Part shown: one piece after another, positions 1-23,357 of the stretch | Layout: every line of letters begins with the position of its first letter | Position numbering within the stretch: the stretch's first letter is position 1 | Origin: a virus | Lineage: Duplodnaviria; Heunggongvirae; Uroviricota; Caudoviricetes | Virus record (IMG/VR): IMGVR_UViG_2545824717_000010 | Reading direction: 5' to 3' (one strand) | Length of the DNA stretch: 23,357 bases | Made by a program: the position numbers and the translations under genes | The notes under the pieces: generated by a model | Database searches by the model: none | What the model saw: only the letters and a program-made list of their open reading frames with translations | What the model was told of the DNA's origin: nothing

Positions 1-1002
1 TTACCCTCTATTGTCAAAAGGGTTCAATTCAACAGCAGCCTCTAAATGACCTGGAGCAAAATGCGCATAACGCATAGTCATTTTTATATCGCTATGCCCC
101 AGTATTTTTTGCAACACAAGAATATTTCCGCCCCGCATCATAAAATGACTGGCAAACGTGTGACGTAGCACATGAGTTAATTGCCCATCAGGAAGCTCGA
201 TCTTCGCTCTCTTAATTGCAGCGTCAAAAGCCTCATAACATGGTGAAAATAGCGCTCCTCGTTTTTTAGGAAGCATAGCCTGCAATTGAGGTGAAATCGG
301 TACAGTGCGGTTCTTCTTTCCTTTAGTTTTAACAAATGTGATTCGACCGGGCAGTACTTGAGATTGCTTTAATCCTTCTGCTTCACTCCACCGAGCACCC
401 GTCGCAAGCCCAATACGGACAACAACCCCCAAATCTTTATTCCGTGACTCATCACACGCAATCAGAAGGCGCTCAATCTCATCTACATACAGAAACGCCA
501 GTTCCTTTTCTTCCTCACGAAACTTGCGAATACCAGTCAGGGGGTTTTCACCAGACCACTCCCCAAGGCGCTTCAGTTCGGCAAAAACAGCATGTAGATA
601 TGACTGCTCGCGATTAACGGTTGCTTCACTAAGTTTTTTCTTCCCCTTGGGATTCCATTCTCCAGATAGCCTTCTTTCCCGATAAGTAGCAAACATATTT
701 TTGTCAAACTGAGAAGCAAATGGATCTCCCAGCCTGGAACAAATCGCCTCAAGTTTGACTTTGCGCTCTGCACCAGAGGACAAGGTTTTACCGTACATCT
801 CAAACCAACGAGCAATCAACTCAGAAAGACGAGGACCAGAACCATCTTGAAACTCGTCTCCAACTCTACTATTCATTAAACGGCGCTCATAAGAGAGCGC
901 CTCACTTTTTGTCGCAAACTGTTTACGAATGCGTTTTCCCGATGCCCCGTAGGGATAACATTCGCAAAGCCATTTACCTGATGGAATCTTACGAACCGAC
1001 AT
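1..1002 (-). CDS. int: Tyrosine integrase, P2 family
   Basis: 333 aa; C-terminal recombinase motifs (LATGARWSEA, HVLRHTFASHFMMRGGNILVLQKILGH, MTMRYAHF with catalytic Tyr); strong resemblance to P2 Int as recalled. Stop codon sits at window positions 1..3. Confidence 0.9.
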   Translation of the reverse strand: MSVRKIPSGKWLCECYPYGASGKRIRKQFATKSEALSYERRLMNSRVGDEFQDGSGPRLSELIARWFEMYGKTLSSGAERKVKLEAICSRLGDPFASQFDKNMFATYRERRLSGEWNPKGKKKLSEATVNREQSYLHAVFAELKRLGEWSGENPLTGIRKFREEEKELAFLYVDEIERLLIACDESRNKDLGVVVRIGLATGARWSEAEGLKQSQVLPGRITFVKTKGKKNRTVPISPQLQAMLPKKRGALFSPCYEAFDAAIKRAKIELPDGQLTHVLRHTFASHFMMRGGNILVLQKILGHSDIKMTMRYAHFAPGHLEAAVELNPFDNRG

Positions 1003-4989: not shown

Positions 4990-5231
4990 CCATTCTGGAC
5001 TACATCACAGCCAATCCGGGCTGTAGCGGTGGAGAAATCGCCGCAGCACTGAATACCCCAACCACAGCCATTAATGCGGAGTTACGCCGACTCTGGCGCA
5101 GCGGTTCAGTCATAAGAAAAGAGCGCAAAACAGGCGGTCGCTTTTCTTATCAGGTAAACCCGATGCCGTTTGGGTGTAGCAACCCACTAACCCAGATGTT
5201 CAACCAGCTACTGAGGGAAATCAGAGCATGA
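4986..5231 (+). CDS. Small putative winged-helix DNA-binding protein
   Basis: 81 aa; ATGA overlap with upstream gene; pattern GCSGGEIAAALNTPTTAINAELRRLWRSGSV suggests HTH/winged helix. Confidence 0.45.
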   Translation: MTILDYITANPGCSGGEIAAALNTPTTAINAELRRLWRSGSVIRKERKTGGRFSYQVNPMPFGCSNPLTQMFNQLLREIRA

Positions 5232-5372
5232 GCACCTCCAACTGCCGGAAACCACGTCGGGCTTCAGCAGCTCATCCGGCAGCAAAACAAACTCCATTAA
5301 TTCCTGTTCCGGGCCTTTCCTGCACCTTGCGGCGGGAGGCCTTCGCACATCTGTAACAAGAGGATTGCCGCA

Positions 5373-5738
5373 ATGATTCTCGCCAACGACTTTCTTGAAT
5401 ACCTGCTCAACACAGAGCGTGATCTTGCCGTTCGCGTGCGTGAACGTTATGACATGTACCTGAAATCCCTGCCTGTACCGCAGCTCGCTGACGGAAAGAT
5501 TGTTATTGATGGTCGCTACATGATTGACAGCCACGAGGGAAATTACAGGCTTTACCGCATTGAAGGCGGCACCCCGTCCGTTATTGGCATTTACCAGCGC
5601 CCATCCTCTGCGATCGTCGATGTGATTGCCGACAGCATCCGCATCACACACCACCATGCCGACACAGAAGACACTGTGCTGGAGATTCAGCGGCTGGCTG
5701 CCGTTTGCCGTGACACTCTGAATGGCATGACGAAGTAA
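5373..5738 (+). CDS. Hypothetical early protein immediately upstream of A
   Basis: 121 aa ORF; RBS-like AGAGGA upstream. Confidence 0.5.
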   Translation: MILANDFLEYLLNTERDLAVRVRERYDMYLKSLPVPQLADGKIVIDGRYMIDSHEGNYRLYRIEGGTPSVIGIYQRPSSAIVDVIADSIRITHHHADTEDTVLEIQRLAAVCRDTLNGMTK

Positions 5739-5744
5739 ATCAGT

Positions 5745-8570
5745 ATGACGACAGAGTACATCAGGGACTGGCAACAACCGCGCCACGCAGTAGGACGTGA
5801 AGGAACGGAGATCCCCGCACCTGAATCCGCACTTTCCTCCTGGCTGGATGCCTACCGGGCAGAGAACGAGCGCCGCCAGGAAATGGCTGATGCGGCGTTC
5901 TCCGCCACGCCGCTGGGCAACCTGATTAATAAAAGCCTGGACGCACAGGAAAAACAGGACAAAACAATCACACTGGCAGGAGACGCCAGAAAACAGGCAC
6001 GCGGCGCGGTAGATGAGGCCATGGCCTCACTGCGCCTGCTGCCGTCCTATCTGCGCGATCCGCTTATTCGCCACCTCTCCTTCCTGCGCAAAAAACAGGA
6101 AGCCGATCGTCAGAAAGGAAAAAACGCCAGGCAGGCAGAACGCTATGCGCGTGGGACCCTGCGCAAAATATTCGAACGTCTGGAGCGCACCGATCACCGC
6201 TGGCTGACATCGGGTTATCGCTCCCTTGCCGGACGTGACCGCCTGGACGATTTGCTTTCCCTGCCGCAACTCAACAAACACCAGATACAGACGCTGGCCA
6301 CCATGACGGCGGCGATGTTCAGCAGCACCTTCGAAAAACTCTGCGATGGTTTTGGCGCGACTGATGGCGAGCTGACCATGGATGTAACGCTGAAGGTGTA
6401 TCAGATGCTGGCCCGCATGGCATTACATCTGCACACCATGCCGCCACATTATGACGCACTGACAACAGACAAAGACCGGAGGAACGAACCAGACACGGAG
6501 CTGCTGCCGGGCGCAATTCTTCGCCTGACCTGTGCGGAATGGTGGAAGCGCAAACTGTGGCTTTTACGTTGCGAGTGGCGGGAAGAACAACTCCGCGCCG
6601 CCTGTCTGGTTTCCAGAAAAACATCGCCCTATCTGAGCCAGGACGCGTTAAGCGAGTTTCGCGCACAGCGCGAGAAAACACGCGATTTCCTGAAAAGTTT
6701 CATGCTGGAAAACGAAGACGGGTTCACGATTGATCTCGAGACAGTGTATTACGCGGGAGTAAGTAACCCGGTTCACCGTAAGGCAGAAATGATGGCCACC
6801 ATGAAGGGGCTGGAACTTCTGGCCGAAGCCCGTGGCGACAAAGCGGTGTTTCTGACTGTCACCTGCCCGTCAAAATACCACGCCACAACAGAGAACGGTC
6901 ATCCGAATCCCAAATGGAACGGGGCCACCATGCGCGACTCCAGCGATTATCTGGTTAACACGTTTTTTGCGGCGGTCCGCAAAAAACTGAACCGCGACGG
7001 CCTGCGCTGGTATGGCATCCGCACGGTGGAGCCTCACCATGACGGCACCGTGCACTGGCATATGATGGTCTTTGCTCATCCGGAAGAAATCGACAGCATC
7101 GTGGCCATCACCCGCGATATTGCCATTCAGGAAGACCGCCACGAGCTGGGCAATGATATTACTCCGCGCTTTAAGGTGGAGTATGTCGACGGCTCAAAAG
7201 GCACACCAACCAGCTATATCGCGACCTACATCGGAAAAAACCTGGACAGCCGCGCCGTCGATGGCATCGACCCGAAAACGGGCAAGCCACGCGTTGACCA
7301 CGAAACCGGAAAATCAATGGCCGAGAGCGTGGAGCGCGCCATCGGCTGGGCGCGCCTTCACCGGGTCCGTCAGTTCCAGTTCTTTGGCATCCCCTCCCGT
7401 CAGGTGTGGCGTGAACTGCGCCGCCTTGCCAGCCAGATGGCACGCAATCCGGAAGGCCCGCAACGGCTGAAAGATGATGCAATGGATGCGGTACTCGCTG
7501 CCGCCGATGCCGGGTGTTTTGCCTCCTACATTGAAAAACAGGGTGGCGTGCTTGTTCCACGCAAGGACTACCTGATTCGCACCGCCTACGACCTCGCAGA
7601 TGAGCTGAACGATTACGGCGAACAGAGCGTACAGATTTACGGGATCTGGTCACCACTCATCGGGGAATCCTCCCGTGTGTGCACGCATCCGGATAACTGG
7701 AAGTTGGTAAGACGTAAACCAGAACCAGAAGACAACGCCCACGAAAATGGTTTTGACCTTCAGGGCGGCCCTGCCGCCCCTTGGACTCGTGGCAATAACT
7801 GTCCCCGTGTACAGGAAACAGGCAACAGCGGGACAGAACAGTCGAAAGAACGGCCAGCACCGTGGCCGCAGCTTCCTGACGGCGTTGAAGTGAACGAATG
7901 GATGCGCTCACTGAAACGGCACGAACGCCGGGCGCTGATGCGTTCGCTTCGTGACAAACAGGCAAAAAACAGCAGTGATGAAATGCAGAGCTGGACACAG
8001 AGCCGCAAACAGCAGCGGCCTTTGCCTGATAACCACGAATTACTCGCTAAAGAATGGCGGGAATCTGCCGAATCTCTCGGCCTGCATATCGGTGAACAGC
8101 AGATGCAGCACCTGTTACGGGGAGGCAGCCTGTACGTTGACGGCAGCATCATTGCACCGCAGGGATTTGAAATTGTACGCAAACCGGATACCCGCCCGGC
8201 CAGCCGAATCACGCAGCTCTGGCAGCGCCTGAGCCGTAATCACGGCGTAAGCAGCACAGAGATCCGTCATAACCCGGTCGCCAGCTATCTGGCACAGCTG
8301 GGGGCATCAGACCCCGAAGCCGCCGCACGTCTGGCATCCACACTTCAGCAGGACCAGAACACCATGAAAACCCCCGTTACCGTGCTTTCTGACATGCTGC
8401 GCGCCATCCGTGACGCAGAGCACGCACAAAGAATCAATGAAACCACTGAACGCGCCCGCCGCAAGGCTACTTTGCTCCAAAAGAGAGGCAAACAGCACTT
8501 TAGTAATCAAAATGATGATGAGAAAAAACAATTACAAAGTTGGATATGCCTTTTCCATCATGAGGGATGA
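5745..8570 (+). CDS. A: Replication initiation endonuclease (rolling-circle, HUH class), P2 gpA homolog with extended C-terminus
   Basis: 941 aa; HUH metal motif VHWHMMVF (about 7050..7080); tyrosine motif YIATYIGKN (about 7210..7236); position before the cargo locus as in P2. Longer than P2 A as recalled (about 760 aa). Confidence 0.85.
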   Translation: MTTEYIRDWQQPRHAVGREGTEIPAPESALSSWLDAYRAENERRQEMADAAFSATPLGNLINKSLDAQEKQDKTITLAGDARKQARGAVDEAMASLRLLPSYLRDPLIRHLSFLRKKQEADRQKGKNARQAERYARGTLRKIFERLERTDHRWLTSGYRSLAGRDRLDDLLSLPQLNKHQIQTLATMTAAMFSSTFEKLCDGFGATDGELTMDVTLKVYQMLARMALHLHTMPPHYDALTTDKDRRNEPDTELLPGAILRLTCAEWWKRKLWLLRCEWREEQLRAACLVSRKTSPYLSQDALSEFRAQREKTRDFLKSFMLENEDGFTIDLETVYYAGVSNPVHRKAEMMATMKGLELLAEARGDKAVFLTVTCPSKYHATTENGHPNPKWNGATMRDSSDYLVNTFFAAVRKKLNRDGLRWYGIRTVEPHHDGTVHWHMMVFAHPEEIDSIVAITRDIAIQEDRHELGNDITPRFKVEYVDGSKGTPTSYIATYIGKNLDSRAVDGIDPKTGKPRVDHETGKSMAESVERAIGWARLHRVRQFQFFGIPSRQVWRELRRLASQMARNPEGPQRLKDDAMDAVLAAADAGCFASYIEKQGGVLVPRKDYLIRTAYDLADELNDYGEQSVQIYGIWSPLIGESSRVCTHPDNWKLVRRKPEPEDNAHENGFDLQGGPAAPWTRGNNCPRVQETGNSGTEQSKERPAPWPQLPDGVEVNEWMRSLKRHERRALMRSLRDKQAKNSSDEMQSWTQSRKQQRPLPDNHELLAKEWRESAESLGLHIGEQQMQHLLRGGSLYVDGSIIAPQGFEIVRKPDTRPASRITQLWQRLSRNHGVSSTEIRHNPVASYLAQLGASDPEAAARLASTLQQDQNTMKTPVTVLSDMLRAIRDAEHAQRINETTERARRKATLLQKRGKQHFSNQNDDEKKQLQSWICLFHHEG

Positions 8571-8755: not shown

Positions 8756-9601
8756 ATGACAAAGCCTTCTCATTTTAGAACCCCTCTTCGTTATCCGGGA
8801 GGTAAGGCAAAATTCTTGCCACATATTGAACAAATACTCCGCAACAATGATCTCATTGGTGGATGTTATGCTGAACCTTATGCAGGTGGAGCCGGTGTAG
8901 CATTAGGTTTGCTCCTTAACGGTCTTGTTGAAAATATCTTCATAAATGATATTGATCCTGCCCTTTATTCTTTTTGGTTTGCAGTGGTTAATCATAACGA
9001 TCTGTTATGTGAAATGATTGATGAAGTTCCTGTGACTATTGAAAATTGGCATACTCAAAAGGAGATACTCCTAAACAATGATAAATATAGTATGCTTGAA
9101 GTCGCATTATCTACTTTCTTTTTAAATAGAACAAACCGTTCAGGAATACTTAAGGCTGGCGTTATTGGAGGGAAAGAACAAAAAGGACCATGGAAGTTAG
9201 ATGCAAGATTCAACAAAAAAGAGTTAATTAAAAGGATTGAACTAATTGGTGCATATAAGGAGAAAATTTACGTATCGAATTTTGATGCTGTAGATTTTCT
9301 GCTACACCAAAAAGCATTGCTACCCAAAAATAGTCTAATATATCTTGATCCACCTTATTATGTTAAAGGAGCAGAGTTATATAGAAATTTTTATAAACAT
9401 GATGATCATGTAAAAATCGCTAATACACTACGGGAAATTCAACTACCTTGGGTTGTGTCTTATGACAATGTGCCTGAAATAAAAAGCATATATCATGAAT
9501 TCAATATGACTGATTATACGCTTAATTATACTGCACAAGATAAGAAAAAAGGTCTAGAAATTATCATTTATAATCATGGTATAAAAATCCCTGACATTTA
9601 A
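8756..9601 (+). CDS. N6-adenine DNA methyltransferase, D12/Dam family (alpha class)
   Basis: 281 aa; N-terminal RYPGGK motif; SAM-binding motif I EPYAGGAGV (about 8870..8896); catalytic motif IV DPPY (9347..9358); markedly AT-rich versus flanks. Target sequence cannot be inferred. Confidence 0.85.
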   Translation: MTKPSHFRTPLRYPGGKAKFLPHIEQILRNNDLIGGCYAEPYAGGAGVALGLLLNGLVENIFINDIDPALYSFWFAVVNHNDLLCEMIDEVPVTIENWHTQKEILLNNDKYSMLEVALSTFFLNRTNRSGILKAGVIGGKEQKGPWKLDARFNKKELIKRIELIGAYKEKIYVSNFDAVDFLLHQKALLPKNSLIYLDPPYYVKGAELYRNFYKHDDHVKIANTLREIQLPWVVSYDNVPEIKSIYHEFNMTDYTLNYTAQDKKKGLEIIIYNHGIKIPDI

Positions 9602-9618
9602 ATTTAAGGATGATATAG

Positions 9619-11316
9619 ATGATTAAAGAAATTAGTTTTAAAAAATTTAAGAAACTGATAGATATTGACTTCTCATTCAATGAAGACATCAATATAATAT
9701 CAGGAACCAATGGGACATGTAAGACAACATTGCTTCATTTAATTAGCAATGGTTTCCAAATGCCACCATCTCGATCACAAAATTATTCAAATAGTAATTG
9801 TGTTAGAGTTATAAAATCTATAAACAAAATAGCCAACCCCAAAATGGAAGCAATTGTTAGGGAATCAAAAAATTACACCGATCCGGCAGAGGGAACAAAA
9901 GGTGTGTTATTTTCTATTAACTATTTGGATCATAGCACACTAGACTTCAGAAAGCACAACTCAAAAAATCCAGACGAAGCGCAACGGTATGCTATCAAAC
10001 CAGTATACCCACGCGGAAAAGAAAAACAATCACTTCCAGCTAAACCAGTTTTATATCTTGGATTATCGCGACTATTCCCAATTGGTGAAACTAAAGACGA
10101 CGCCCTTACAAAAATTCCGTTAAACCTACCAGAAGAGTATGTTGGTTATATATCGAAAATATATAATGAACTTTTGGGAATTAATATTATAAATATAGAA
10201 TCAAACAATATCGGTGATTTTAAAGCTGGCCCATTATTTGATACCGATAACCCAGCAATTGATTCTAATACCATATCATCCGGGGAAGACAATATATTCA
10301 TTATAATCAAGGCATTAGTTAGCCTTAGGTATTATTTTGAATCACTTATTCAATCCACTGATCAAAAAGAAAGCATTCTGTTAATAGATGAATTTGATGC
10401 CACTTTACATCCTTCTTTACAGATAAGATTATTAGATAAAATTTATCAATACGCAAAAGATTATAAGATTCAAGTATTTTTCACAACGCACAGTCTGACA
10501 TTGCTAGAGTATGCTTTTCATAAAAAATACCATGTTGTCTATCTAATTAACAATATTACAAAGGCTCTGCTTTTGGATAATCCTGATATATTAAAAATAA
10601 CAATGTATCTGAAAACACAAACAAAGGATGAGATATACACAAGGAACAAGATACCAGTTTTCACGGAAGATGAAGAAGCTCGCTTTTTATTTAATGAAAT
10701 ACTTGGTTATTGGATAAGCAAATATCCAAATTTTGCTATAGTTAGTAATTCATTTCACTTAATTGATTGTTTCATTGGTGCAGACAATTTAAAAACTATT
10801 TTTAATGATTCTCATCTTAAGGAAACCTCGTTAAAATCAATTTGTATTCTTGATGGAGATCACAGCCCTGAGGATCAGAGAGGAATTATATCACTGCCGG
10901 GTGAAAAAGCTCCAGAACAATTGATATTTGAGCATTGTGAGCACCTTTATAATACCGACGACTCTTCCTTCTGGGAAAATCAGGATATAATTAACAATGG
11001 TTTTTCGAAAGAGTTATACTTACTCAAGATACGTCCTCAATTACAATCAATTGAAACTGAAATTCAGAAAAGAAAAGACAACCATGAGTCTACATCCGGT
11101 TTAAGAAGAAGATTAAATAAGAAAATATTCAATCAGCATATTGAATTCTTTAGAATGATTACAAGAAACTGGTTAGACAAACCAGAAAATCAGAAATCTC
11201 TCCAGTATTTTTACAATGGATTACGATCCTTATTCTACCGGGTTACACCAACAAACGGCATTGACAGAAAAATTTGGGATTTTGACTATAACAAAATCAT
11301 TAAAGAGGATAAATAA
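9619..11316 (+). CDS. ABC-type ATPase fused to a TOPRIM-like nuclease domain (OLD/PARIS-like architecture)
   Basis: 565 aa; Walker A GTNGTCKTT (about 9703..9729); Walker B LLIDEFD (about 10381..10400); TTHS motif; C-terminal region with conserved Glu (VFTEDEEA, about 10654..10680) and DxD (ILDGDH, about 10846..10860) consistent with TOPRIM; starts 17 bp after the MTase stop; very AT-rich. Confidence 0.75.
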   Translation: MIKEISFKKFKKLIDIDFSFNEDINIISGTNGTCKTTLLHLISNGFQMPPSRSQNYSNSNCVRVIKSINKIANPKMEAIVRESKNYTDPAEGTKGVLFSINYLDHSTLDFRKHNSKNPDEAQRYAIKPVYPRGKEKQSLPAKPVLYLGLSRLFPIGETKDDALTKIPLNLPEEYVGYISKIYNELLGINIINIESNNIGDFKAGPLFDTDNPAIDSNTISSGEDNIFIIIKALVSLRYYFESLIQSTDQKESILLIDEFDATLHPSLQIRLLDKIYQYAKDYKIQVFFTTHSLTLLEYAFHKKYHVVYLINNITKALLLDNPDILKITMYLKTQTKDEIYTRNKIPVFTEDEEARFLFNEILGYWISKYPNFAIVSNSFHLIDCFIGADNLKTIFNDSHLKETSLKSICILDGDHSPEDQRGIISLPGEKAPEQLIFEHCEHLYNTDDSSFWENQDIINNGFSKELYLLKIRPQLQSIETEIQKRKDNHESTSGLRRRLNKKIFNQHIEFFRMITRNWLDKPENQKSLQYFYNGLRSLFYRVTPTNGIDRKIWDFDYNKIIKEDK

Positions 11317-18330: not shown

Positions 18331-18431
18331 CGACTGACCCCGTCAGCGGGCGGCGTGCGCGGTGTTCCGGTTTGACTCCGTGACCGTTTACACCGCGCAC
18401 CCACCGCCCGATTTTTTCAGGAGTGAACCCC

Positions 18432-18926
18432 ATGAGTATGGTTGCCAGAACCAACCCCGGCCCCGCAGAGGACGACATCACCGATACCGATGATGGTGAT
18501 ACCCGTATTTCAGCGGGCGCATTCTGGCCGGATATTGTGCTGCGTGAGCTGCGTCTGGCGATACGACTGCCTAGCCGTGTGACCACCTCCCGCCTGCTGC
18601 ATACCGCCACCGGGGCCGTGGCACACGTTACCCGCGAGCTGGAAGCGTGGCAGAAGGAACAGCAGGCGGCTGGCCATCAGACGCTGGCCGATGTTCCGGC
18701 ACCCGTAATTAACGGAGAAAGCGTCAATCTCTGGCACTGGCGCAATGCTGTTTATACCGCCACGCGCGCCCTGATTCTGGAGCGTTACCGCGATGCGGAC
18801 ACAACGGACAAGGGCGACCGCCGGGCGGACGCACTGGATATACAGACATCGGATTTGTGGCGTGATGTGAGCTGGGCCATCTCTGACATTCTGTGTCGCC
18901 CGCGAATCTTTGCGGAGTTGTGCTGA
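18432..18926 (+). CDS. L: Head completion/stabilisation protein, P2 gpL homolog
   Basis: ATG at 18432 with RBS CAGGAG 8 nt upstream (the track ORF starts at GTG 18423); about 164 aa; position after M. Confidence 0.8.
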   Translation: MSMVARTNPGPAEDDITDTDDGDTRISAGAFWPDIVLRELRLAIRLPSRVTTSRLLHTATGAVAHVTRELEAWQKEQQAAGHQTLADVPAPVINGESVNLWHWRNAVYTATRALILERYRDADTTDKGDRRADALDIQTSDLWRDVSWAISDILCRPRIFAELC

Positions 18927-19126
18927 TGAAAGTGAAGGCACTGGAAGGCGACACCGTGGATTCGCTCTGTTTCCGGTACTACGGCACGACGCAGGGCGTC
19001 ACCGAAAAGGTGCTGGATGCCAACCCCGGACTCTGTCAGCAGGTATTTCTGGACGCCGGGCAGGAAGTTGAGATGCCGGAGCCGGAGAAGAAGAAACGAG
19101 AAATGATTCAGTTGTGGGGGGAGTAG
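18926..19126 (+). CDS. X: Tail protein X homolog (small LysM-like protein)
   Basis: 66 aa from ATG 18926 overlapping the L stop (TGATG); similar size to P2 X. Confidence 0.75.
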   Translation: MKVKALEGDTVDSLCFRYYGTTQGVTEKVLDANPGLCQQVFLDAGQEVEMPEPEKKKREMIQLWGE

Positions 19127-19128
19127 CA

Positions 19129-19452
19129 GTGAGCACCATTCAAACAGGGATCACAGAGCAGGTTATTGCGTGGCTCTTTGACCACCTGCCAACGGTGTAT
19201 GCAGTAGGCGCGGCGGTCAGCATTTCCGCGCTGATGAGTCTTTATGACGGACGAACACTGGTTCAGACCGTAACGGGATCGCTGGCGTGCGGCGTTCTTG
19301 CCATGGCCGTGGCCGGGTCGTTGCGCTTCTTCGGGGTTCCTGAAGATGCCGTGACGTTTATCGGCGCATCAATCGGTTTTATGGGTGCAGAGAAAGCACG
19401 CGACAAGGTTATTGCGGCCTTTAATCGCAGGGTGAAGGAGAAGGACGAATGA
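19129..19452 (+). CDS. Y: Holin (class I-like, multiple TM segments)
   Basis: GTG start at 19129 preceded by GGGGGAG (alternative GTG at 19114); hydrophobic segments and charged C-terminus; immediately upstream of the endolysin with ATGA overlap. Confidence 0.7.
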   Translation: MSTIQTGITEQVIAWLFDHLPTVYAVGAAVSISALMSLYDGRTLVQTVTGSLACGVLAMAVAGSLRFFGVPEDAVTFIGASIGFMGAEKARDKVIAAFNRRVKEKDE

Positions 19453-19841
19453 GCAACACATTTAAATTCAGCAGCCGGAGCGAAAAGAATTTGCAGGGCG
19501 TAAATCCTGATCTGGTGAAAGTGACCCGACGGGCACTGGAAATCTCGGAAGTGGATTTTGGTATCACCGAAGGGTTGCGCAGCCGTTACCGCCAGAAGCA
19601 ACTGGTGGCCACGGGTAAGAGCCAGACCATGAACAGCCGCCACCTTACGGGGCATGCCGTGGATGTTGTGGCTTATATCGGCAGCCAGGTGTCATGGGAA
19701 TGGCCGCTGTACGAAAAAATCGCAGCAGCATTCAGACAGGCCAGCCGGGAACTGAATATTCCGGTGGAATGGGGCGGCGACTGGAAGACCCTGAAAGACG
19801 GACCGCATTTTCAGTTACCACACGGAGCCTATCCGGCATGA
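19449..19841 (+). CDS. Endolysin, M15-family peptidase (L-alanyl-D-glutamate peptidase type)
   Basis: 130 aa; motifs SRHLTGHAVD and DGPHFQ match the zinc-binding H..D...H pattern of VanY/T5-endolysin-like peptidases as recalled. Confidence 0.8.
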   Translation: MSNTFKFSSRSEKNLQGVNPDLVKVTRRALEISEVDFGITEGLRSRYRQKQLVATGKSQTMNSRHLTGHAVDVVAYIGSQVSWEWPLYEKIAAAFRQASRELNIPVEWGGDWKTLKDGPHFQLPHGAYPA

Positions 19842-20245
19842 AGCTCTGGCCCACGCTTGGCGTCGCTTTCCTTCTGATTGCCGGATGGGGAACATCCATG
19901 CGTCTGTCGTGGTCGCTGGGCCGGGAGAACGCCAGAAACGAAGCACAGGCCAGCACCCTGAAAAGTACCGTCGACACCCTGAATATCATCAGCACCGGGG
20001 TACAGGATATGCAGCAGGTGCTGGCGCAACTCCGCGTGGAAAATCAACAGCGAAATCAGGACGGAGAGGCCAGACGTGAACAGCTACGCAACGATATTGC
20101 AAAAGATGAATGCGCCCACGCTTTGCCTGACGCTCGTTTTACTGACAGGTTGCGCAGGCACGCAGAACGCGCCACTGTCAGCGCCGTCAGTCCGGCTTAT
20201 ACCGCAGACGCTGACCATACCGGTAACGCCTCCCCCCTTCCCTGA
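19838..20245 (+). CDS. lysB: i-spanin (Rz/LysB-like)
   Basis: ATG 19838 overlaps the endolysin stop; N-terminal TM anchor (LWPTLGVAFLLIAGWG) then coiled-coil-like periplasmic domain. Confidence 0.7.
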   Translation: MKLWPTLGVAFLLIAGWGTSMRLSWSLGRENARNEAQASTLKSTVDTLNIISTGVQDMQQVLAQLRVENQQRNQDGEARREQLRNDIAKDECAHALPDARFTDRLRRHAERATVSAVSPAYTADADHTGNASPLP

Positions 20246-20396
20246 CACTCCCACATGGGGAAATCTCGGTATATGGGGCGACCGCCTTCTGGATGCACTG
20301 GAAACCTGTAACGCGGATAAACGGGCCATTGAATTACTGGAACAGCGCAGGCTGCAACGACTGAACAACGAGGACAACAACCATGCTGAAAACTGA
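20106..20396 (+). CDS. lysC: o-spanin lipoprotein (Rz1/LysC-like), overlapping the i-spanin gene in another frame
   Basis: ATG 20106; signal peptide with lipobox LLTGC; Pro-rich mature region; overlapping-frame arrangement typical of two-component spanins. Confidence 0.7.
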   Translation: MNAPTLCLTLVLLTGCAGTQNAPLSAPSVRLIPQTLTIPVTPPPFPDTPTWGNLGIWGDRLLDALETCNADKRAIELLEQRRLQRLNNEDNNHAEN

Positions 20397-20613
20397 TTCC
20401 CTGCGTGAAGCCATGACCCGTTCATGCCGATGGTGTCAGGCTAACCCGGAAAAATTCACCATCTTCGTGGAGAGCGGCAACATTGAAACGACAGGAGAAA
20501 CCCCATCGTTTGTTTACCGCTATCAGATGGTGATGTTTGTCATGGATTACGCCGGGGAGCTGGATGACCTCACGCTGCCGCTGCTGGCGTGGTTATACAC
20601 CTCAAAGATGTAG
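20383..20613 (+). pseudogene. R: Truncated tail completion protein R (N-terminal about 64 codons, then junction-derived sequence)
   Basis: N-terminus MLKTDSLREAM resembles P2 R start as recalled; ORF ends after 76 codons where the sequence becomes the reverse complement of an FI fragment. Confidence 0.55.
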
Positions 20614-21458
20614 GCGTTCGTTTCCGGTGTGCGGTTGCCCCAGAAGCGGAACCCGTTACGACGAATAATGGTCGTGATTTCTTTGTTGTTAAGGCTGTTG
20701 GCATCGCTGTCTTCGGCCTGCAACGACCAGAACACATGCCGGGACATCCCCAGCACATTTTTAACCGGAACGTTGGACAGTGATTTGTGCCAGCCCTGCT
20801 CATGGTCAATGTACGCACGAAGGCCGCACGCATAAGCAGGCGCGGGGAACGTTTCGTTTTTGCCACTTTTCGGGTTGTAGGCGATGAAGTCCGGCCATAA
20901 GAGCATCACCTCACGTTCGTTGAATTTCTGGCGGTAGGTAATTGCCTCTGCCATCGTGTTACAGCCATGACATGAGGCATACACAAACGCGCGCAGTTTA
21001 CCCGCAATCACGCACAGGGATTTTGTCACCGCCTCCGTGTCCAGCTCCGGCGCGGCCAGAATACGCGGACGGTATCCGATGCTTTCATCCTGCTCTGCAA
21101 CAAGCAGCGCATACATCCCCGTATAGCTGCCGTCAGATTCAGAACCACCGATAACCAGTTGATCCTGCGTCTTTCCGTTTTCTTCTTTGTGTTCAGCCAC
21201 GCGAACGACGATCACCTTTGTGCTCACCTGGTCTGCGATGGCCTTAAGCGCACGATAAAGCGTCCCCGTTGTCCCGCATTTTCCCAGCACGTCATTGACG
21301 CGGGTCAGCAGTGTGGGCTTGTTCAGCGGGAACAGCTTCGCGTCCGCATCATCCGCCGTTGCCACGATACCGATAACGCTGGAATCAACATCGTTAATCG
21401 CTGTTACCAGGTCGGTACTTTCCGTAACACGGGCACCATGAAAACGAGTTTCACTCAT
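20547..21458 (-). pseudogene. FI: N-terminal fragment (about 290 codons) of tail sheath protein FI, in inverted orientation
   Basis: Translation matches the recalled P2 FI N-terminal region (FPLNKPTLLT, GWHKSLSNV, TLIRRNGFRFWGNRT-like blocks) but is on the minus strand and ends in junction sequence; FII, E, T, U and S, V, W, J, I, H, G are absent. Confidence 0.7.
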
Positions 21459-21615
21459 AGCTTCAGCCCCTTGTATCCGTTAAATGATTCGGCAACAATC
21501 ATCACCCACCACGCGCGTAATCTCACCCCTGCGCCGTTCTCCCGCCACGGCGACAACAAAAAGCAGTAACCCCCTCCGCACGCACATGCGACCATGCCGC
21601 ACAGGGAGGGAGCAG

Positions 21616-22725
21616 ATGACCGACACCACCATGCAATTGCTCAGTCAGGGCACAGACCCCGTAAAAATGCCGGATTTTGATATTCTCGCGGAGGGTAAAA
21701 CGCTGTCAGGCGTGGCAGAGCGCCTGATGAGCCTGTCACTGACCGACAACCGGGGATTTGACGCGGACCAGCTCACCATCACGCTGGATGATGCGGATGG
21801 TCAGTTGCAGCTACCGCCACGGGGCGCGCGCCTGACGGTTCTCATTGGCTGGAAAGGAGAACCGCTGACAGAAAAAGGCACTTACATTGTTGATGAAATC
21901 GCTCACGAAGGACCGCCGGACAGGCTGACTGTTTCAGCCAGAAGCGCAGATTTTCGGGATGAATTTAACGTTAAACGTGAGGTGTCCTGGCATGATGTGA
22001 CCGTTGAGCGTGTGGTATCCGCCATCGCTCATCGGTATGGTCTGAAACCGCAAATCAGCGAAATGCTGATGGATATCGAAATCGACCACGCCGACCAGAC
22101 CGAAGAAAGCGACATGTCCTTCCTTACGCGCATGGCGGAAATGCTGGGCGCAATCACCACGGTAAAAAGCGGCAATCTGTTATTCATCATGCCAGGTGGT
22201 GGCGTGAACGCACAGGGCCAGCCGTTGCCCTCGTTCGCCATTACACGCAGCAGCGGCGATCGCCATCAGTTCCGCATTGCTGACCGCGAGGCGTATACGG
22301 GGGTACGCGCCTACTGGCTTGATCTTAATTACGGGAAAAAGAAAAAAGTCAGCGTGAAACGCCGTAAACCGCCAAAACCCAAAAAGGAGAAAAGCAGCAG
22401 CCGTGAAGGTGATTATATGGAAGGCGCGGAAGGCAATGTGTTTGTGTTACGCAAGACTTATCAGAACGAGCAGGCAGCAAGACGCGCAGCGGCGGCAAAG
22501 TGGCAGCAACTACAACGCGGAGCCGCATCATTCTCCATCACGCTGGCGCGTGGACGTGCAGAACTCTACCCCGAAATGCATGGCACGGTAACAGGATTTA
22601 AAAGCGAGATTGATAATAAGGACTGGATCATTGCAAAAGCCGAGCACACCATTGATAACAGCGGTTTTACCACGCAGCTTGAGCTTGAGGCAAAAATCCC
22701 GGAATGGATAGCGGAAACAGAGTGA
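21616..22725 (+). CDS. D: Tail protein D homolog
   Basis: ATG 21616 with strong RBS GGGAGGG; about 369 aa; immediately upstream of ogr as in P2. Confidence 0.8.
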   Translation: MTDTTMQLLSQGTDPVKMPDFDILAEGKTLSGVAERLMSLSLTDNRGFDADQLTITLDDADGQLQLPPRGARLTVLIGWKGEPLTEKGTYIVDEIAHEGPPDRLTVSARSADFRDEFNVKREVSWHDVTVERVVSAIAHRYGLKPQISEMLMDIEIDHADQTEESDMSFLTRMAEMLGAITTVKSGNLLFIMPGGGVNAQGQPLPSFAITRSSGDRHQFRIADREAYTGVRAYWLDLNYGKKKKVSVKRRKPPKPKKEKSSSREGDYMEGAEGNVFVLRKTYQNEQAARRAAAAKWQQLQRGAASFSITLARGRAELYPEMHGTVTGFKSEIDNKDWIIAKAEHTIDNSGFTTQLELEAKIPEWIAETE

Positions 22726-22765
22726 GCAACTTAGAATAGGCAGCACCACGTTAAGGGAGGTCGCT

Positions 22766-23026
22766 ATGTTCCGTTGTCCGCTTTGTGGCGCATCTGCCCG
22801 TATCCGCACCAGTCGTCCGGAAAATGATTCAAACACCGTGCGGCAAAAGTATTACCAGTGTAACAATCTGGAATGCGGCGTATGCTTCTCAACACTGGAA
22901 GCTTTCCATAAATTCACATCAAAACACGCCTCCGGCGTTCACTCTTCAGAAGGTATCCCGTGGCATGAGCTGCCAGCTTCACACAGGGGAAACAATCAGA
23001 TGAGTTTGCCTTTATCTCAGAATTAA
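22766..23026 (+). CDS. ogr: Ogr/Delta-family zinc-finger late transcription activator
   Basis: 86 aa; N-terminus MFRCPLCG; Cys-x2-Cys ... Cys-x4-Cys zinc-binding pattern (C4, C7, C32, C37); RBS AGGGAGG. Confidence 0.85.
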   Translation: MFRCPLCGASARIRTSRPENDSNTVRQKYYQCNNLECGVCFSTLEAFHKFTSKHASGVHSSEGIPWHELPASHRGNNQMSLPLSQN

Positions 23027-23216
23027 CAGGCAGAATTGCCGGAGTAACAAAAAAGCGATAGATTACGCGCGGGTGCCTTTCGGCTGATGGTCGGAGGGAA
23101 TACCCGAAGGCCAGATGTGGAAAGGCCCCGGAAAACATTTCTGTTTAACCGAGGCCCTGACCATCTAACCTTAGCAAGTGATAGGTTAGCGCCTCCCTGA
23201 AAAAGGAGCAAGCGCT

Positions 23217-23357
23217 ATGTCGCAAAAATCGCTTATGGCCATCACGTTCTGCGTGACGGCAATCCTCATCATCTGGATGCTGCACGGTTCGCTGTGTGAA
23301 ATACGGATGAGCTTCTGGGGAGCGGAGTTTGCGGCGTTCTTACAGTGTAAGCAGTAA
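23217..23357 (+). CDS. Hok/Gef-family type I toxin-like small membrane protein
   Basis: 46 aa MSQKSLMAITFCVTAILIIWMLHGSLCEIRMSFWGAEFAAFLQCKQ: N-terminal TM helix, SLCEIR motif and G..E.AAF motif characteristic of Hok/Gef peptides; RBS AGGAG 8 nt upstream; stop codon at the last 3 nt of the window. Confidence 0.7.
   Translation: MSQKSLMAITFCVTAILIIWMLHGSLCEIRMSFWGAEFAAFLQCKQ

Follow-up and report, generated by a model that had tools for sequence, protein, structure and literature searches.

The window analyzed here, a stretch of 23,357 nt, belongs to a P88-like (Xuanwuvirus, Peduoviridae) P2-type E. coli prophage and ends at gene boundaries on both sides, with the int stop codon at base 1 and the stop codon of a small hok gene at base 23357. 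This last gene follows ogr and is an ATG-started ORF encoding the 46-aa peptide MSQKSLMAITFCVTAILIIWMLHGSLCEIRMSFWGAEFAAFLQCKQ; the last three bases of the window are its TAA stop codon. Residues 6–23 of the peptide form a hydrophobic stretch (N-terminal helix), followed by the motifs SLCEIR (residues 25–30) and AAF (residues 39–41). The peptide matches the Pfam profile HOK_GEF (PF01848) with 30.2 bits (E 3.5e-7, profile positions 5–42 of 42; gathering cut-off 22 bits), as well as PHROG 251 ('MokW-like host killing', E 1.6e-22). Because the peptide passes the Pfam gathering score and matches PHROG 251, the 46-codon gene after ogr is predicted to encode a membrane toxin of the Hok family. An earlier sequence-only reading of this DNA had described a Hok/Gef-like ORF of 46 aa with a TM helix, both motifs and a good ribosome binding site, and had named a profile search as a check; the HOK_GEF match above the gathering score and the AAGGAG Shine-Dalgarno (SD) sequence bear this description out. 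The 67 homologues of the peptide are called Hok/Gef wherever their source gives a name (one JGI entry reads 'protein HokA'), the identical locus is already annotated as Hok/Gef in RefSeq, and the phage P88 record contains a Hok/Gef annotation as well. Residues G24, C27, E28 and A39–A40 are invariant across 17 members of the subfamily, and the dN/dS of hok against diverged copies (0.15–0.38) is that of a peptide under purifying selection. The features of the locus are collected in Table 1.

Table 1. Elements of the hok locus at the right end of the window. Extended coordinates continue the numbering of the window beyond base 23357.
Feature	Position	Strand	Remarks
Putative hok promoter	23036–23064	+	-35 TTGCCG 23036–23041, 17-nt spacer, -10 TAGATT 23059–23064
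tac-like element GGGUGCCUU	23071–23079	+	5' end of hok mRNA; partners fbi or 23119–23129
5' hairpin	23071–23129	+	Refolded (3'-truncated or nascent) mRNA; GGG.GCCUUUC pairs with GGAAAGGCCCC
ucb-like box GAUGGUCGG	23086–23094	+	Pairs with 23157–23165 in the full-length fold
Upstream ORF, 37 codons	23087–23200	+	2 nt between its UGA stop and the hok SD; without an SD of its own
Predicted Sok-like antisense RNA, ~60 nt	23115–23176 (23176→23115)	-	By homology to the R1 layout
GAGGC	23151–23155	+	Position of the R1 mok SD; can pair with anti-SD GCCUC 23191–23195
dcb-like box CUGACCAUC	23157–23165	+	Partner of the ucb-like box, 9 bp
Target-type hairpin CUAACC/GGUUAG, loop UUAGCAAGUGAUA	23165–23189	+	Homologous to the R1 Sok-target hairpin
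Predicted sok promoter	23183–23211	-	-35 TTGCTC 23211–23206, 17-nt spacer, -10 TAACCT 23188–23183
Hairpin sequestering hok SD and start	23187–23217	+	UAGCGC CUCC pairs with GGAG ... GCGCUA
hok SD AAGGAG	23203–23208	+	8 nt 5' of the ATG
hok coding sequence	23217–23357	+	
3'-UTR hairpin	Directly after the hok stop, outside the window	+	Read from L003 5358–5480
fbi AAGGCACCC	Extended 23414–23422 = L003 5415–5423	+	Outside the window
Terminator	Extended 23444–23471, outside the window	+	Read from L003 5358–5480

That the hok ORF ends at the window edge is an artefact of the way the window was cut, and 39 of the 80 best-matching related IMG/VR prophage contigs also end exactly at the hok stop. The last ~65–120 nt of the locus, and with them the fold-back element, are lost through this cut. 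To the sequence-only reading the locus was either host chromosome just outside attR or a toxin-antitoxin (TA) locus carried at the prophage end, and it proposed a search for the attL/attR direct repeat. We identified a 121-bp att direct repeat, made up of the 3' part of a tRNA-Leu gene (leuZ) and downstream sequence, that brackets int through hok. In a 99.9% identical genome (L003) the copies of the repeat lie at 6302–6422 and between int and yecA, and hok (5218–5358) is located ~945 bp inside attR; the integrase of the window is 100% identical to that of this att-mapped prophage.

In classical P2, ogr is the last gene before att. A hok gene beyond ogr, with a boundary that is invisible from the window alone, would fit host DNA; against this, the 121-bp repeat places the hok gene of L003 inside the element, the locus occupies the same position in phage genome records, and P2-like prophages integrated elsewhere (ihfA/pheT, guaA, and leuZ in Salmonella) also have hok after ogr. 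The host-chromosome origin is rejected by the att mapping and we consider it extremely improbable, so that of the two options the TA locus at the prophage end is the one that stands. The order D-ogr-hok is found, 96–99% identical, in 11 records of a phage collection (7 distinct phages), and phages with the locus include P88, P88_4B11, Chuche, PhiR44_2 and Shae_phiSM. Since the att repeat puts hok inside attR and P88-like phage records contain the module, hok/sok is best described, from its position, as phage cargo between ogr and attR and not as host DNA. Hundreds of E. coli genomes contain the locus. The prophage in the window is itself a tail-less deletion derivative that misses ~13 kb of tail genes.

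The ogr stop (23026) and the hok ATG are separated by 190 bp. The sequence-only reading had taken this entire stretch as the leader; the spacing is correct, but the transcribed part amounts to only ~146 nt, as the Rfam match and the conservation of the family both begin at 23071. We predict the hok transcription start at about this position, with an mRNA of ~352 nt. The Rfam model RF01794 (sok/hok leader) matches 23071–23230 on the + strand with 42.7 bits (E 3.1e-8), which falls short of its gathering score of 59. An R1-type locus scores 87.2 bits with the same model; that match is in hok-sense orientation as well, beginning at the mRNA 5' end and ending at the hok AUG. The possibility that the + strand match represents a sense-strand sRNA was rejected, since R1 is also hit in the hok-sense orientation and the model therefore describes the hok leader. 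From these matches, the homology of the leader to the hok mRNA leader of plasmid R1 is clear, with the present locus belonging to a divergent subfamily. In close P88 copies the module is similar from the -35 region onwards and in every relative from the -10 onwards, in each case as far as fbi and not beyond.

The putative hok promoter, which points to a start at ~23071, agrees with the consensus at 8 of 12 positions, which is below the scan threshold. Across 56 loci its -10 (TAGATT/TAGAAT) hardly changes, and the similarity of the family starts there. A consensus promoter scan picked up neither the hok nor the sok promoter of the locus. The same scan finds the hok promoter of R1 and misses the established R1 sok promoter, and is therefore uninformative for sok.

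The fold-back element lies outside the window, 57–65 nt past the hok stop, and was read in L003; by this rightward extension, which the sequence-only reading had asked for, fbi was recovered together with a pairing of the mRNA ends that covaries. The tac-like element is perfectly complementary to fbi over 9 bp, and the minimum free energy (MFE) fold of the full-length mRNA (-158.8 kcal/mol, z -7.97 versus 100 shuffles) pairs these two elements. In a set of 55 distinct homologues, many of which are close relatives, the end-pairing helix, 15 pairs long, reaches 95.4% pairing and includes 5 compensatory pairs; tac and fbi as such hardly vary, and the covariation comes from the adjacent 4–5 pairs. 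Over the whole fold, 92.2% of cells are paired, versus 38–44% when the partners are slid, and 34 pairs have changed on both sides across relatives.

The 5' end has a second potential partner within the leader. The fold of 23071–23130 (-35.1 kcal/mol, z -5.1) contains the alternative 5' hairpin, which is 95.1% paired in the relatives and shows 4 compensatory pairs; their 5' columns are those for which covariation with the 3' UTR is seen as well. Judged by these alignments, the 5' bases covary with two mutually exclusive partners (fbi and 23119–23129), which is the signature of an R1-type switch.

Two sets of complementary segments in the leader had been singled out in the sequence-only reading as being of the fold-back type, and all of them are real. 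The segment CTGATGGTC occupies 23084–23092, 2 nt to the right of the original estimate, and GACCATC lies exactly at 23159–23165; this long-range pair extends to 9 bp, is part of the MFE fold and shows compensatory changes. It corresponds to the ucb/dcb pair, and the CTAACC (23165–23170) and GGTTAG (23184–23189) segments correspond to the Sok-target hairpin. The ucb/dcb helix is 74.7% paired in the relatives with 5 compensatory pairs, although its register differs between subgroups, and its many G-U pairs are compatible with a + strand RNA only. The target-type hairpin aligns with the hairpin at positions 91–117 of the RF01794 model. Its loop opens with UUAG, a YUNR-type motif, and in most listed variants starts with UUAG, UUGA, UUCG or UUAA. 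The most variable stretch of the leader is 23161–23170, as expected for a region that determines antisense specificity.

In the full-length fold, the helices that bury the hok SD and start codon are 99.7 and 91.4% paired across relatives, and all changes in them are wobble-compatible. The anti-SD has a competing partner in GAGGC: the GAGGC:GCCUC helix is seen in leader-only and truncated folds and is 88% paired, and a single lineage (L105b) has altered both sides, from G-C to A-U, at pair 148–190.

On the opposite strand, a Sok-like gene is predicted, with its ends taken from the R1 layout. The predicted RNA would consist of a single-stranded 5' tail complementary to 23157–23176 and a GC-rich hairpin (the complement of 23124–23156), followed by a UUUCC tail. 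Its fold (-24.8 kcal/mol, z -3.7) has the design of R1 Sok folded alongside, and the hairpin is kept in relatives with compensatory changes. The -35 of the predicted sok promoter overlaps the hok SD, and the promoter is of the same type in spacing and sequence as the R1 sok promoter, TTGCGC-17-TATCCT (read in L108). Its -10 is invariant except in four relatives, which have TATCCT (L093, L097 and L100b, identical to R1) or TAAGCT (L018). By homology to R1, a Sok RNA with a conserved promoter and terminator is plausible.

A conserved mok frame was not found in any of the three frames of the 56 loci, and the position of mok in R1 has no start codon in this locus. An ORF that starts with ATG or GTG in the 5' leader and reaches the hok ribosome site is present in 30 of 56 relatives; it is absent from the Stx-phage copy, from 12 of the 14 Salmonella copies and from the single Klebsiella copy. 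The upstream ORF of the window (Table 1) is a possible surrogate for mok that is not conserved, and it is also broken in several P88-like copies. The K-12 hokA locus was compared for locating mokA, and its leader is split by IS150. The sequence-only reading was silent on the absence of a conserved mok frame.

Taken together, the locus is very probably an intact hok/sok-type type I TA module, carried as accessory cargo between ogr and attR by a P88-like P2-type prophage at tRNA-Leu (leuZ). The mechanistic precedent is R1 hok/sok (PMC9841398). In the folded full-length mRNA, the 5' end GGGUGCCUU pairs with AAGGCACCC at the 3' end and the ucb-like box with the dcb-like box, with the hok SD and AUG buried in a local hairpin. 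By analogy to plasmid R1, slow 3' trimming would strip the fold-back element, upon which the 5' end would form its own hairpin and the leader would refold, exposing the target hairpin and freeing the hok ribosome site. The short and unstable Sok-like RNA would, as in R1, bind the refolded leader and lead to cleavage by RNase III, such that the toxin is kept off while the element is present and transcribed. The activation step is uncertain, because mok, which is required in R1, is not conserved here; since no conserved mok frame couples translation, activation would probably take place directly at the hok ribosome site, with GAGGC competing for the anti-SD. The most likely role, as we infer it, is selfish prophage stabilization or host-killing upon loss of the prophage; alternatives would be exclusion of other phages or help in lysis upon induction, for which hokW-sokW of the Stx2 prophage Sp5 is a demonstrated case. 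As the prophage is tail-less, the question of a role in lysis or virion release does not arise for the copy in the window.

A variant of this explanation, rather than a replacement for it, is that the module is mok-less and that competing RNA pairings switch Hok translation directly, which we put forward tentatively. The anti-SD CCUCC would pair with the hok SD in the closed state and with GAGGC in the refolded state, and Sok lying over GAGGC and dcb would restore sequestration of the SD besides causing cleavage. Such a switch would be consistent with a leader that has no conserved ORF with start codon and SD before hok (an upstream ORF is lacking in 26 of 56 relatives) and that tolerates frame-shifting indels, with the strong SD of hok itself, and with the GAGGC:GCCUC helix and its one compensatory change. 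A good SD is a feature of R1 hok as well, however, where translation of hok nevertheless requires translation of mok up to the hok SD (PMC9841398). The window and about half of the E. coli copies moreover contain an ATG ORF, starting at 23087 or 23115, that runs to or through the hok ribosome site and is a candidate for mok; GAGGC and GCCUC are nearly invariant, their covariation comes from one lineage, and MFE predictions of alternative folds are weak evidence. In its widest form, the 46-aa HokA-like subfamily would be a naturally mok-less hok/sok variant with a three-way switch between the SD, anti-SD CCUCC and anti-anti-SD GAGGC, that has spread among P2-like and other prophages at their attR-proximal ends, sometimes as tandem arrays, and in which a private hypervariable Sok-target stretch (23161–23170) in each copy prevents cross-talk between co-resident copies; as a whole we regard this proposal as doubtful.

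The locus could also be an inactive relic whose toxin is no longer expressed, like several of the chromosomal hok loci of E. coli K-12, of which hokA is disrupted by IS150. The loss of the tail genes marks the prophage as defective, a clearly decayed second hok copy adjoins attR in a related genome, and the upstream ORF is stopped by a UGA in the window copy where many relatives read through. Yet the hok ORF, its SD and the promoters are intact, as are tac, ucb/dcb, the anti-SD and the Sok hairpin, all with the same or nearly the same sequence as in P88-like phage copies, the RNA helices are kept by compensatory change and the Hok peptide by purifying selection, and elsewhere 42 of 45 diverse Hok peptides were toxic (bioRxiv 10.1101/2025.08.07.668861). 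We therefore judge a relic to be unlikely, and favor the intact module.

This intact module resembles R1 hok/mok/sok (parB) in most of its parts: a small Hok with the SLCEIR core, a homologous leader with ucb/dcb boxes, tac/fbi end pairing with fbi equally far from the stop (65 nt here, 64–65 nt in R1), a hairpin immediately following the stop, a 5' hairpin in which tac can pair instead, an antisense promoter whose spacer measures 17 nt and whose -10 is TAxCCT, and a Sok that consists of a 5' tail and a long hairpin. The antisense -35 overlaps the hok SD here, whereas it directly abuts the hok SD in R1. Further differences are the length of the toxin (46 aa, versus 52 aa in R1), a leader shorter by ~27 nt, in which the hok AUG is at +147, the lack of a conserved mok frame equipped with an SD and AUG, the sub-gathering RF01794 score (42.7 versus 59), and a prophage instead of a plasmid as carrier.

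The best functional precedent for a phage-encoded Hok is hokW-sokW of the Stx2 prophage Sp5 / 933W, a likewise prophage-borne hok/sok and an experimentally shown type I TA system that depends on RNase III and Hfq; upon prophage induction Sok is lost and Hok is made, which helps lysis (PMC8621323). Identity of the present locus with the published hokW-sokW was rejected, as HokW is a different paralogue of 51 aa that starts with MKQQKAM, has another leader and is carried by a lambdoid and not a P2-like phage. P88 and PHROG 251 owe their 'MokW-like' label to name transfer by similarity alone. Stx phages additionally contain an 83%-identical copy of the 46-aa locus, which lies outside the scope of that study (PMC8621323).

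The best-scoring named subfamily for the peptide is HokA (NCBIfam NF007290), with 33.3 bits against an equivalog cut-off of 89, and on this score the 46-aa Hok is not a HokA orthologue. A comparison with chromosomal hok loci, as the sequence-only reading had suggested, thus leads to hokA/mokA/sokA of E. coli as the nearest, with a shared WM..SLCE....AAFL.CK pattern and GGGUGC...GCACCC end motifs. HokA differs in its length of 50 aa and in its context, as hokA lies at cspA-glyS and is disrupted by IS150 in K-12.

A recent catalogue lists 6290 Hok homologues in IMG/VR phages and prophages, reports a four-fold enrichment of hok in prophages and describes hok 'islets', tandem groups of 2–6 hok genes (bioRxiv 10.1101/2025.08.07.668861). 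Its categories cover the present locus and the tandem arrays seen here; it deals with peptides only, explicitly leaving out mok, Sok and mRNA structure, and the ogr-hok-attR arrangement of P2-like phages is absent from it (bioRxiv 10.1101/2025.08.07.668861). A literature search on hok in P2-like phages turned up no account specific to the ogr-att region. Tandem hok arrays were met among the relatives of the locus, among them three tandem copies from Salmonella (L105, at 2005, 2503 and 3001).

The locus is common, already annotated and ordinary, and the enrichment of hok in prophages, of which it is one more well-supported example, is already published. For annotation, it means that P88-like prophages reach past ogr, with a complete hok/sok module and another ~0.9 kb before attR. 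Prophage predictions based on gene calls split the module at the hok stop and lose the fold-back element that is needed to read its regulation. The covariation shows conservation of the R1-type 5'/3' switch within a divergent subfamily without a conserved mok. Being very common in E. coli, the locus would lend itself well to testing what hok does in prophages, be it retention, lysis timing or phage exclusion.

In the scan of viral contigs the best 80 matches were all at least 98% identical, and the diverse relatives were drawn from contigs encoding related Hok proteins. The scan of genome contigs returned only 7 loci. Three of these 7 carry non-enterobacterial labels (a Planococcaceae MAG, Vagococcus and Xanthomonas), probably reflecting contamination or mislabelling.

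The 46-codon reading frame that follows ogr at the right end of the window carries the SLCEIR and AAF motifs described in the sequence-only reading, and has a hydrophobic N-terminal half, an ATG start and an AAGGAG Shine-Dalgarno (SD) sequence. In a profile search, the kind of test that this reading had named as able to refute it, the peptide scored 30.2 bits with Pfam HOK_GEF (E = 3.5e-7), above the curated threshold of 22 bits, and it matched PHROG 251 (E = 1.6e-22). Its best NCBIfam model, HokA, gave 33.3, far below the equivalog cut-off of 89. The dN/dS of 0.15–0.38 indicates purifying selection on the peptide. The last 660 bases of the window are 96–99% identical to the D-ogr-hok region of P88, P88_4B11, Chuche, PhiR44_2 and Citrobacter phage Shae_phiSM (all Xuanwuvirus; Peduoviridae, P2-like phages), in whose records the gene is already named "hok/gef family" or "MokW-like host killing". 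Of 5426 complete E. coli genomes, 766 contain at least 80% of 22000–23357, with the ORF named "Hok/Gef family protein" by PGAP. The system is well known and this locus is a standard member of it, very common and already annotated; the earlier reading was right both in its observation and in interpreting it as a hok/sok-type locus. New here are the fold-back partner, recovered from sequence past the window edge, the mapping of the att sites, the covariation evidence for the switch in this hok subfamily, and the lack of a conserved mok, the overlapping leader reading frame.

The window begins at the stop codon of the gene for a 333-aa integrase (int, minus strand, 1..1002) and ends with the hok stop codon (23355..23357), which is also the contig end in 39 of 80 related IMG/VR contigs. 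The position of the ORF at the edge is therefore a by-product of prophage prediction delimited by gene calls, not biology; a window delimited in this way truncates the hok/sok module and omits approximately 0.95 kb of the element before attR. Sequence past the edge was supplied by E. coli 51489 (locus L003), which matches the final 1358 window bases with a single difference and has a 100% identical integrase. The element is flanked there by yecA and the leuZ-cysT-glyW tRNA cluster. The proposed search for direct repeats identified a 121-bp repeat at tRNA-Leu, comprising the 3' 55 nt of leuZ and 66 bp downstream including its terminator, which is present as attR (L003 6302..6422) and as attL between int and yecA (L109 12687..12807), and which brackets a prophage of approximately 34 kb between yecA and leuZ. 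The hok gene is therefore phage cargo, located approximately 945 bp inside attR; of the two placements considered in the sequence-only reading, a toxin-antitoxin at the prophage end stands and host chromosome outside attR does not.

Salmonella P2-like prophages integrated at other sites also have this subfamily after ogr; further copies lie at the end of a prophage whose tail module differs (L095), next to a plasmid-type relaxase gene, and alongside Phd/Fic genes on a Klebsiella contig. Since the region from hok to the att site varies among P88-like phages, it is apparently a slot for variable cargo. In L003 it contains, between the hok terminator and attR, a 93-aa ORF (5548..5829, minus strand) with a match to PHROG 27544 (unknown function) and a weak one to a "membrane associated protein" moron family. 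L003 also holds a second, decayed hok locus (6040..6260), past the window and approximately 100 bp before attR, with a promoter and leader approximately 74% identical to the hok leader and an internal deletion that fuses the region of the leader box dcb to the ..LCEIR.. codons. It may have been left by a tandem copy or by a prophage that occupied the leuZ site earlier.

The rightward extension, also proposed beforehand, recovered a hairpin, a fold-back complement and a terminator past the hok stop codon (see the table). The fold-back element is exactly complementary to GGGUGCCUU (23071–23079), where both the Rfam match and family conservation start, and the layout and distances of the 5' and 3' elements are the same in the reference system, hok/mok/sok of plasmid R1. 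Similarity starts in the -35 region among P88 copies and at the -10 in more distant ones, such as an 83%-identical Stx-phage copy, and ends directly after GGCACCC; the mobile module is bounded by these points.

Elements of the hok/sok module in the window and, past the hok stop codon, in L003
Feature	Position	Strand	Details
hok SD	8 nt 5' of ATG	+	AAGGAG; read from sequence
hok ORF	23217..23357	+	46 codons; ATG start; TAA stop, the final three bases of the window
3'-UTR hairpin	first element 3' of hok stop	+	GACGGGGGAGCAAUCCCCCGUC; L003
Fold-back element fbi	57–65 nt past hok stop	+	AAGGCACCC; L003
Intrinsic terminator	~20 nt beyond AAGGCACCC	+	L003
Predicted sok promoter	-35 23211–23206; -10 23188–23183	-	TTGCTC (overlaps hok SD), 17-nt spacer, TAACCT; alignment with R1
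Predicted Sok-like RNA	~23176->23115	-	fold: 5' tail and GC-rich hairpin

The RNA that starts at 23071 and runs through fbi (352 nt) has a folding energy of -158.8 kcal/mol (z = -7.97 against dinucleotide shuffles). This fold contains pairing of the 5' and 3' ends, a 9-bp helix (23086–23094 with 23157–23165) resembling that of the long-range boxes ucb and dcb, the complement of the Sok hairpin, and a local hairpin (23187–23196 with 23205–23217) that hides the hok SD and AUG. The complementary leader segments noted earlier are all present, two exactly where reported and one displaced by 2 nt. On an alignment of 56 loci (55 distinct) from E. coli, Salmonella, Citrobacter, Klebsiella and Stx phages, with total identity down to approximately 67%, the structure is 92.2% paired, compared with 38–44% when partners are slid, and both sides have changed in 34 pairs; these values are to be read with the near invariance of fbi and the 5' end element tac, the close relatedness of many sequences and the derivation of the structure from the query sequence. 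The end-pairing helix (15 pairs, 95.4% paired) has five compensatory pairs, including U-A to C-G and C-G to G-C, each in 15 sequences; there are five more in the 3'-UTR hairpin and seven in a long-range helix of the Sok-target region with the 3' UTR. When the leader is folded by itself, a 5' hairpin is predicted (23071–23129; 95.1% paired, four compensatory pairs). The central result is that alignment columns 68–72 at the 5' side covary with both their end-pairing and their 5'-hairpin partners, the pattern that a conserved two-state mRNA switch of the R1 type should leave (summarised in PMC9841398).

For the antisense RNA Sok, the Rfam "sok" model matches the plus strand of the window with 42.7 bits, short of the gathering score (59). 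When calibrated on an R1-type locus, the model proved to run in the hok sense and to cover the mRNA from its 5' end up to the hok AUG; the match therefore demonstrates homology of the leader. The predicted promoter (TTGCTC-17-TAACCT, against TTGCGC-17-TATCCT in R1) has a -10 that is invariant except for TATCCT in three relatives and TAAGCT in one (L018), and the predicted RNA resembles R1 Sok in having a 5' tail and a hairpin. The most variable part of the leader, 23161–23170, is the complement of the predicted tail and is unlike among three tandem Salmonella copies, which fits a specificity determinant of the putative Sok. In Salmonella P2-like prophages, two or three tandem hok loci follow ogr with a period of approximately 498 bp (L105-L107 2005..3141; L099/L100 3001..3635), each with its own sequence in the predicted Sok-target stretch; hok tandem "islets" have been reported (bioRxiv 10.1101/2025.08.07.668861).

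No start codon was found in the window leader where mok begins in R1. An upstream ATG ORF (23087–23200, plus strand) stops 2 nt short of the hok SD, and many E. coli copies have an equivalent that continues for 70–87 codons. Translation of R1 mok is required only as far as the hok SD (PMC9841398), so by analogy this ORF could serve as a mok surrogate. It lacks an SD, begins 17 nt from the mRNA 5' end and is interrupted or missing in 26 of 56 relatives. A direct RNA switch, with GAGGC (23151–23155) competing against the hok SD for the anti-SD, fits at least as well: the GAGGC/anti-SD helix is 88% paired and has a compensatory change in one lineage.

We commit to the reading that the locus is a functional R1-type hok/sok module. 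A recent survey found 42 of 45 diverse Hok peptides to be toxic and reported a four-fold enrichment of hok in prophages (bioRxiv 10.1101/2025.08.07.668861). Experimental work on a prophage hok/sok exists only for hokW-sokW of Sp5, a 51-aa paralogue, unlike the 46-aa hok of the window; on induction it loses Sok, makes Hok and doubles phage release (PMC8621323). Selfish prophage retention is the most likely role of the module, with lysis assistance or phage exclusion as alternatives. Approximately 13 kb of P88 (about 19330 to about 32270) is absent from the window (junction ~20596, within 18400..21600), namely the genes for baseplate, tail fibres, tape measure, tube and the C-terminal part of the sheath, and the sheath ORF (20547..21458, minus strand) is shortened to 303 aa. 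This makes the prophage defective, a derivative without a tail, in which the module could matter only for retention or exclusion.

Stx2-converting phages (L004 1480..1905) carry an 83%-identical copy of the 46-aa hok module, from the -10 through fbi, which is distinct from the studied 51-aa hokW of Sp5 and is unannotated ("none") in 18 of 19 Stx-phage records among the matches listed. Between the replication and portal genes of the window are genes for a D12-class adenine methyltransferase (8756..9601) and a 565-aa AAA_15/AAA_21 ATPase (9619..11316), in a slot that we take to be where P2-like phages hold variable anti-phage cargo, e.g., old and tin. Near-identical E. coli-type hok loci also occur in assemblies labelled Planococcaceae MAG, Vagococcus sp. 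and Xanthomonas pisi (L005, L006 and L009), labels that most likely reflect contamination or mis-binned contigs.
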